Positions 10,949-11,181 of a stretch of DNA of 64,000 nt are shown here, piece by piece; within the stretch, counting starts at the first letter, position 1; every line of letters starts with the position of its first letter. The notes beneath the pieces were generated by a model. It saw only the letters and a list, made by a program, of their open reading frames with translations. It had not been told where the DNA came from and searched no databases. Position numbers and translations under genes: made by a program. Source of the DNA: Cheilinus undulatus (taxonomy: Eukaryota); the NCBI RefSeq assembly GCF_018320785.1, contig NC_054885.1, positions 14,917,132 through 14,981,131 of the forward strand. Reading direction: 5' to 3'.

Positions 10949-11181
10949 TGGGAAAACCAGCAGCTGCACAGCCTGGAGGAGAGAGGTCGTCTTCTTCTCT
11001 CCCTGCAGTTTCTGCCACCGCTCGGTTTGGAGGATGAAGGTCTGGAGGGAGGAGGAGGAGGAGGGGGAGGCGAAGGAGAGGGTGAAGGACGTCGCAGTGG
11101 AGGTCTTTGTGTTGGAGTGAAGCGCTGCGCCCACTTAGCAGCGATGGACGTCAACGGATTTTCAGACCCCTATGTCAAAAT
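10949..11181 (+). CDS. Doc2-family (double C2-like domain) protein, internal coding exon covering the linker and start of C2B
   Basis: Polypyrimidine tract plus AG at 10947-48. An in-frame TAA lies just upstream, so the exon starts here. Translation: [77 protein letters not shown]. This matches Doc2 ...EERGRILISLKY..GLLVGIVRCAHLAA(L/M)DANGYSDPYVK as I recall it. GTAAGA donor at 11182. Exon ends in phase 2. Confidence 0.75.
11042..11095 (+). repeat. Coding (GGA/GAG)n microsatellite inside the Doc2-family exon
   Basis: ggagggaggaggaggaggagggggaggcgaaggagagggtgaagga, translated in frame as [15 protein letters not shown]. Confidence 0.9.

Follow-up and report, generated by a model that had tools for sequence, protein, structure and literature searches.

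The in-frame Gly/Glu stretch in the first C2B exon of the window (the whole stretch of DNA analysed, 64,000 nt) is an ordinary lineage feature: a real, teleost-wide enlargement of one loop, plus a few repeat-derived residues. The gene is a teleost doc2a orthologue, and the stretch is most likely the beta1-beta2 loop of its functional C2B domain, enlarged in the teleost stem, lengthened by slippage and tolerated since.

Gene identity and exon arrangement

The four exons joined to a CDS of 182 codons with canonical splice sites and no internal stops (Table 1). The top named matches were teleost 'double C2-like domain-containing protein alpha' sequences with 78-87% identity, and a Labrus bergylta doc2a fragment showed 97% identity over the last 117 residues, from which the DNA would probably belong to a wrasse-like percomorph. 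A phmmer search showed that the best solved relative was the C2B domain of Doc2b (4LDC, E 4.9e-65), followed by rabphilin C2B and synaptotagmin-1. The C2B domain was therefore closest to Doc2/rabphilin C2B, as expected of the Doc2 family, and its identity to tetrapod Doc2a and Doc2b was 58-66%. The Pfam C2 match (96 bits) began at residue 53, past the extra stretch. All five Ca2+-coordinating aspartates of C2B loops 1 and 3 were present (D67, D73, D127, D129 and D135) in nearly invariant columns, together with the Doc2a-type motifs MDVNG and EFFYE, the polybasic KKSKHK and the bottom helix. Within the family, the gene fell in the teleost doc2a group: doc2a was the nearest named gene, the exon borders were identical in four relatives and the downstream neighbour was shared. 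This neighbour was a C2H2 zinc-finger gene on the minus strand, found in the same arrangement at the Dissostichus (L001) and Caranx (L003) loci.

Of doc2a, the window contained the four C2B exons only. No C2A, linker or N-terminal exon was found in the 64 kb by tblastn with a Doc2b-like query and the Pampus, Scortum and Poecilia orthologues, so the upstream intron must be longer than 10.9 kb. In orthologues P0171, P0076 and P0050 C2A was joined to the exon carrying the loop, and in the Pampus, Scortum and Poecilia orthologues this exon was linked to C2A and the usual Doc2 N-terminus. The Pampus orthologue P0171 and gar P0155 begin with a Doc2-type N-terminal region (MTVRRGK...), a region with a Munc13-binding role in Doc2 (PMC2823689). 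Other elements of the window, including two transposase remnants and three tandem repeat blocks, are also listed in Table 1.

Table 1. Features located in the window, with the evidence or remarks for each.
Feature	Position	Strand	Evidence or remarks
ATCGT-based 5-, 15-, 25-bp repeat block	4105-4454		Further upstream of the loop exon
41-bp (also 123-bp) tandem repeat	9912-10278		Intronic, about 700 nt upstream of the loop exon
First C2B exon, doc2a	10949-11181	+	Translation, splice sites, borders conserved in four relatives
Beta1-beta2 loop, 31 codons	11012-11104	+	4LDC alignment, loop-length survey, orthologue AlphaFold model
Imperfect coding trinucleotide repeat	11048-11078	+	TRF, pattern search, gaps against relatives
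Tc1/mariner-type transposase remnant	12085-12724	+	Sleeping Beauty-type HTH and DDE_3; within the 10-kb intron that follows the loop exon
Second C2B exon: beta3, polybasic beta3-beta4 region, beta4	21175-21256	+	tblastn, splice sites, L007/L008 colinear
Third C2B exon, with Ca2+-binding loop 3	22504-22600	+	tblastn, splice sites, L007/L008 colinear
Last coding exon: (G)GVCLSCHSQGDALRHWMDCLKNQGRRVERWHILTNELPQTLSHD and TAA stop, with bottom alpha-helix	25249-25385	+	tblastn, sequence read
359-aa ORF ending in several C2H2 zinc fingers	38097-39176	-	
Tc1/mariner-type transposase remnant	39974-40730	+	HTH_Tnp_Tc3_2 domain
27-bp minisatellite	61559-62092		19.9 copies, 85% matches; artefactual ORF of GCMKVAPPI units

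The loop and its position in the C2B domain

The first C2B exon was bordered by the acceptor ccacag/TGG and the donor AAAAT/gtaaga and ended in phase 2 (AT/). Its translation produced one open frame, with stops in the other two frames, and encoded from N to C the end of the linker, strand beta1 (GRLLLSLQF), the enlarged beta1-beta2 loop, strand beta2 (LCVGVKRC) and Ca2+-binding loop 1. The loop occupied exon codons 22-52 between ...LLLSLQF and LCVGVKRC. It had a net charge of -5, and purines made up 74% of its 93 nt of DNA (48 G, 21 A). The non-repetitive start of the loop and its GRRSGG end were common to the orthologues. No exact match to the ORF of this exon was present in the protein collection. 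The sequence, the translation and the in-frame Gly/Glu stretch were as the first-pass annotation had described them, and the interval given there (11009-11104) corresponds to the loop and the Phe codon. The insertion of about 30 aa that it reported is indeed in frame; its size, however, was overestimated, as the net gain over canonical Doc2 is 25 aa (31 against 6).

In the phmmer alignment with 4LDC, query residues 10-21 paired with chain residues 2-13 (EERGRILISLKY) and query residues 50-179 with chain residues 17-146. A total of 28 query residues against 3 chain residues were left unpaired between the two blocks, giving the net gain of 25. The AlphaFold model was made from the Dissostichus orthologue P0048, 86% identical, in place of the protein of the window. 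It had a mean pLDDT of 78 and showed beta1 at residues 32-40, a coil at 41-64 and beta2 at 65-74; the pLDDT of the coil blocks was 77 and 59, and that of the core was 89-97. A fold search with this model returned 4LDC first, with 4LDC and rabphilin C2B on top. The 4LDC alignment, the Pfam match and the orthologue model agreed that the insertion lies in frame in a Doc2 C2B exon between the first two beta-strands, as had been proposed, and the suggestion to model the C2B domain was borne out in so far as the orthologue model predicts a coil between beta1 and beta2. In the type-I topology of C2 domains, Ca2+ is bound by loops beta2-3, beta4-5 and beta6-7, and the beta1-2 connection is on the opposite, 'bottom' face. 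From this textbook topology, the loop would be expected on the bottom face, opposite the Ca2+-binding loops, and it is probably a flexible, net-acidic, disordered surface excursion.

The GGA repeat

The TRF search showed an imperfect (GGA)n repeat of 10.3 copies with 78% matches within the loop. The repeat is composed of (GGA)5 GGG GGA GGC GAA GGA GA.., which encodes in frame Gly8 followed by Glu/Gly alternation. Its perfect core was the 17-mer GGAGGAGGAGGAGGAGG at 11048-11064, which occurred once in the 64-kb window and in none of 100 dinucleotide-preserving shuffles (0.00 expected by chance). Multiple alignment with four relatives showed gaps of 9, 12, 15 and 18 nt, all within the repeat and all multiples of 3, and the excess of the window over the nearest relative (L002) was 12 nt of GGG/GGA/GGC/GAA-type codons. 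The stretch thus showed two features of a coding microsatellite, an above-chance period-3 tandem in frame and whole-codon length differences confined to the repeat, and the alignment and the loop survey both showed that loop length differs between species. The microsatellite had been put forward as driving the extra residues. It does contribute to them, but it makes up only some 10 of the loop's 31 codons, from G34 to about E44.

The perfect core is only five units long, and the present-day instability of the repeat may be low. Of two contigs from a relative, L007 (SRR33509462) contained GAG, seven GGA and GGC, and L008 (SRR33509466) contained at least eight GGA and GGC. L007 and L008 (positions 1-60) both end in or near the repeat. 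Allelic length variation would break contigs at the repeat in a de Bruijn assembly, and assembly noise would have the same outcome, so the difference in GGA count is only suggestive of allelic length variation and could equally be assembly noise.

Loop length across the Doc2 family

For the survey, the residues that separate the beta1 motif from the beta2 motif were extracted from every recovered protein. The loop was exactly 6 aa in all 43 sequences of tetrapod, gar (P0155) and paddlefish (P0074) Doc2a, Doc2b, Doc2g, Doc2d, rabphilin and lamprey, in line with the short conserved stretch that the first-pass annotation expected of Doc2 proteins. All 61 teleost doc2a-type sequences had a loop of 15-31 aa, and no sequence of any group had a loop of 7-14 aa. 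Each of the 61 teleost doc2a sequences had a loop of at least 15 aa with an LPP start, and none of the 43 others did. The enlarged-loop teleosts included eel, herring, catfish, characin, salmonid, smelt, cod and percomorphs. A coding trinucleotide repeat at this position had been considered unusual; the survey showed instead that all teleost doc2a orthologues recovered carry an enlarged loop, in both paralogue lineages, which is the outcome that the first-pass annotation had itself named as making the insertion an ordinary lineage feature.

Generally, the teleost loops fell into three length classes. Loops of 15 aa, e.g., LPPPEEGDGEGRRGG, were found in herring and catfish. Loops of about 20 aa, e.g., LPPA.DGD.KGEAKERARGG, belonged to the second paralogue lineage, which is marked by WETEQQRS and LGKSND. 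Loops of 22-31 aa with Gly runs were found in the percomorph copies of the first lineage, including that of the window. Both paralogue lineages were found within the bagrid catfishes, within the goodeids and in Coregonus, and this co-occurrence would fit a duplication no later than the teleost radiation. Almost every teleost doc2a sequence had a loop with an acidic or neutral net charge, in contrast to the canonical loop of 6 aa, which was net basic or neutral.

The loop of the window (31 aa) was the longest in-frame loop found, followed by those of P0009 (30 aa), Caranx (28 aa) and P0001 (27 aa). Only the last 4-9 residues of its extra length were lineage-specific. The loop of P0009 showed independent low-complexity growth with the His-Gln-Gly motif GGGGHQGGGTRGEGHQGAGG. 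In Mugilogobius chulae (L005 14293-14552, GCA_016735935.1) a loop of about 119 nt was built on a (GACCAG)n Asp-Gln repeat, and beta1 and beta2 were 1 nt out of frame in the assembly (TTC-TG where TTC CTG is expected). This frame break was considered as a counter-example, put down to a fault of the assembly or annotation or to a lesion of that lineage, and not taken to bear on the window. The first part of the public Mugilogobius protein model (P0128) was read in the wrong frame.

Coding status of the stretch and alternative explanations

Blastn of the exon with 300-nt flanks against four relatives produced alignments that covered the exon and 10-24 nt on each side and ran straight through the repeat. 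The Logan contigs L007 and L008 were 88-89% identical to the spliced CDS of the window and colinear with it over all three exon junctions, which indicates that they are transcript-derived, and since these spliced contigs contain the Gly run, the run is present in the mRNA of a relative. Nei-Gojobori Ka/Ks values against Caranx and Dissostichus were 0.042 and 0.068 for the core (149 codons) and 0.32 and 0.57 for the loop, the latter being noisy values from only 26-28 alignable codons. The stretch is neither an intron nor part of a pseudogene. The unrecognised micro-intron that the first-pass annotation had raised, removed from the mRNA with all or part of the stretch, is almost certainly not there. 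The exon does hold many in-frame GT...AG pairs, because the repeat is rich in AG, and one candidate of 90 nt (11008-11097) would neatly excise the loop and leave ...LLLSLHGGLCVGV. However, an exhaustive in-frame scan showed weak donors and only purine-rich acceptors without a polypyrimidine tract, none of them credible, and the AG of the 90-nt candidate was missing in Caranx (CGGGGTGG there). In addition, the stretch was alignable across species, which true introns were not, its indels were all multiples of 3, and the spliced contigs of the relative were uninterrupted from the Gly run into beta2. In P0046, a member with a 6-aa loop, beta1 and beta2 were in one exon, and with both strands in one exon in 6-aa-loop members the insert does not derive from retention of an ancestral intron. 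It is highly improbable that this is an unexpressed or decaying doc2a copy, with the expansion of the repeat reflecting relaxed constraint. In favour of this reading, no doc2a exons other than those of C2B are seen in the window, and the introns are long (>10.9 kb upstream and 10 kb downstream) with transposon remnants. The sign of a diverging copy seen in the repeat was nevertheless not matched by the rest of the gene, in which four open exons with canonical splice sites, a core Ka/Ks of 0.04-0.07 and intact Ca2+-binding aspartates were found. Synteny with the Dissostichus and Caranx doc2a loci was also conserved, and the orthologue is transcribed in a relative; zebrafish doc2a has been detected by RT-PCR and cloned from 24-hpf embryo cDNA (PMC3484866).

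Other explanations accept the stretch as coding and give it a role. The acidic Gly/Glu loop could be functional as an intramolecular pseudo-ligand or an electrostatic shield for the basic C2B patches, tuning SNAP-25/SNARE or PI(4,5)P2 binding with a strength set by repeat length, although this is unlikely. The charge of the teleost loops, acidic or neutral against basic or neutral in the canonical loop, is consistent with such a role, as are the conserved LPP start and R-x-GG end and a loop Ka/Ks of 0.3-0.6, below 1. The N-terminal peptide of SNAP-25 is acidic. This peptide is the ligand of rabphilin C2B, where the reported SNAP-25-binding surfaces are the lysines of the bottom alpha-helix and the polybasic stretch between beta3 and beta4 (PMC9522249); the loop would lie on the same face as this helix and near the polybasic strand. 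Equivalent basic residues were present in the protein of the window (RHWMDCLKNQGRR; KKSKHK). However, the middle of the loop varied freely between 15 and 31 aa with Gly, His-Gln or Asp-Gln repeats, no defined structure was predicted in the model, and the Ka/Ks values came from few codons. A more specific proposal is quite unlikely, in which the loop forms a disordered, acidic 'tail-in-a-loop' at the bottom of C2B, the side facing the SNAREs, competes there with acidic ligands such as the SNAP-25 N-peptide, or with PI(4,5)P2, for the basic bottom helix and the polybasic strand, and is tuned by slippage; if true, slippage (Gly/Glu, Asp-Gln, His-Gln-Gly) would be a heritable tuning knob for spontaneous/asynchronous release. 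GAR-rich tracts act as splicing enhancers, and the GGA/GAG tract might be retained in part because, in the RNA, it serves as an exonic splicing enhancer that helps to define a 233-nt exon between very long introns. The purine content of the loop DNA (74%) and flanking introns of about 10 kb or more would suit this role, but it is very unlikely: Caranx has a similar tract with a downstream intron of only 1.5 kb, and the basal teleosts with 15-aa loops do not have the tract. No relation between flanking-intron length and repeat length was found among three species.

The codons GGT CGT CTT CTT CTC TCC CTG CAG at 10986-11008 form a polypyrimidine tract followed by CAG and resemble a 3' splice site. 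Splicing at this tract would skip 60 nt in frame with the loss of strand beta1. The Leu codons here were almost unchanged in five species, with Ks of about 0.6 elsewhere, and this stability could be due to chance or RNA-level constraint.

Origin and significance

Returning to the preferred explanation, a tolerated loop of teleost origin, one in-exon insertion in the teleost stem lineage would have enlarged the loop from 6 to about 15 residues. Since the enlarged loop is shared by both teleost lineages but absent from gar and paddlefish, the stem is the most likely point of origin. The added sequence, with an LPP start, an acidic middle and a G-R-R-G-G end, would have passed to the two teleost doc2a paralogues. 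Later, in spiny-rayed fishes, the middle of the loop may have drifted into GGN/GAR codons, forming a short coding microsatellite at which replication slippage, the probable mechanism, would add or remove whole codons. The loop would be tolerated because it is a flexible, acidic and probably disordered surface excursion on the face opposite the Ca2+-binding loops, while the rest of C2B would stay under strong purifying selection. The exact loop length is probably near-neutral. Loop acidity and the LPP...GRRGG frame were conserved across teleosts, with loop Ka/Ks below 1 over 26-28 codons, so the loop might have some function. The varied low-complexity fillings point to a permissive site and not to a specific new function.

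The finding has little import for biology at large, being one more teleost doc2a with the shared loop enlargement. For annotation, it means that exon 10949-11181 is a real exon, which gene models ought to keep whole and at full length. Several public models of other fishes (P0048, P0051, P0052, P0067 and P0005/P0081) were C2B-only, started at MDVNG after the loop or were split in two, and a EukProt data set contained two such faulty doc2a models. Automated pipelines seem to cope poorly with the loop exon and its long introns, and the truncation of doc2a models may owe something to intron length and to the low-complexity stretch. Overall, the beta1-beta2 loop of Doc2/rabphilin C2B has 6 residues except in teleost doc2a, where it is a hot spot of independent low-complexity expansions, and this natural series of loop lengths is material for testing whether the bottom face of Doc2 C2B matters. 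The individual sequences are already in public annotation. The enlarged loop is not mentioned in the Syt/Doc2 gene catalogue (PMC2823689) or the zebrafish 16p11.2 study (PMC3484866), and no paper mentioning the loop-length pattern was found.

Comparison with known systems

The gene in the window has the exon layout, Ca2+ aspartates, KKSKHK and bottom helix in common with Doc2a and with Doc2b C2B (4LDC). It differs from the Doc2a of tetrapods, gar and paddlefish and from Doc2b in the loop, which is 6 aa and neutral or basic in these (SSQKQG, SSRRRG, CPQRGG) and 31 aa and acidic in the window. Other teleost doc2a share the insertion site, the LPP...R-x-GG frame and the exon borders with the window, and percomorph copies of the same paralogue, e.g., that of Scortum, already carry Gly4-Gly8 runs. 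The window loop exceeds those of in-frame teleost orthologues by 1-16 residues, encoded by GGG GGA GGC GAA / GGA GAG-type codons in the repeat. Rabphilin-3A C2B (2CM5, 5LOW) has the same fold, about 51% identity, a polybasic beta3-beta4 region and a basic bottom helix. The bottom helix of rabphilin-3A binds SNAP-25, and the protein of the window has sequence equivalents of the basic patches. Unlike the window, rabphilin-3A has a loop of the canonical length of 6 aa (NSQQGG type).

The splice insert of Piccolo C2A (Garcia et al.) sets a precedent, being a short additional C2 segment that lies off the Ca2+ site and alters domain behaviour. That insert has 9 residues and is alternatively spliced and structured, whereas the window loop is a constitutive part of the exon, has low complexity and is predicted as coil. 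A more general class is that of trinucleotide repeats in coding DNA and homopolymeric amino-acid runs in disordered regions, which are characterized by period 3, in-frame indels and length differences between species. The run in the window likewise has period 3, in-frame indels, a length that differs between related species and a position in a surface loop; however, it is very short (five perfect units) and lies inside a compact beta-sandwich instead of a long disordered linker.
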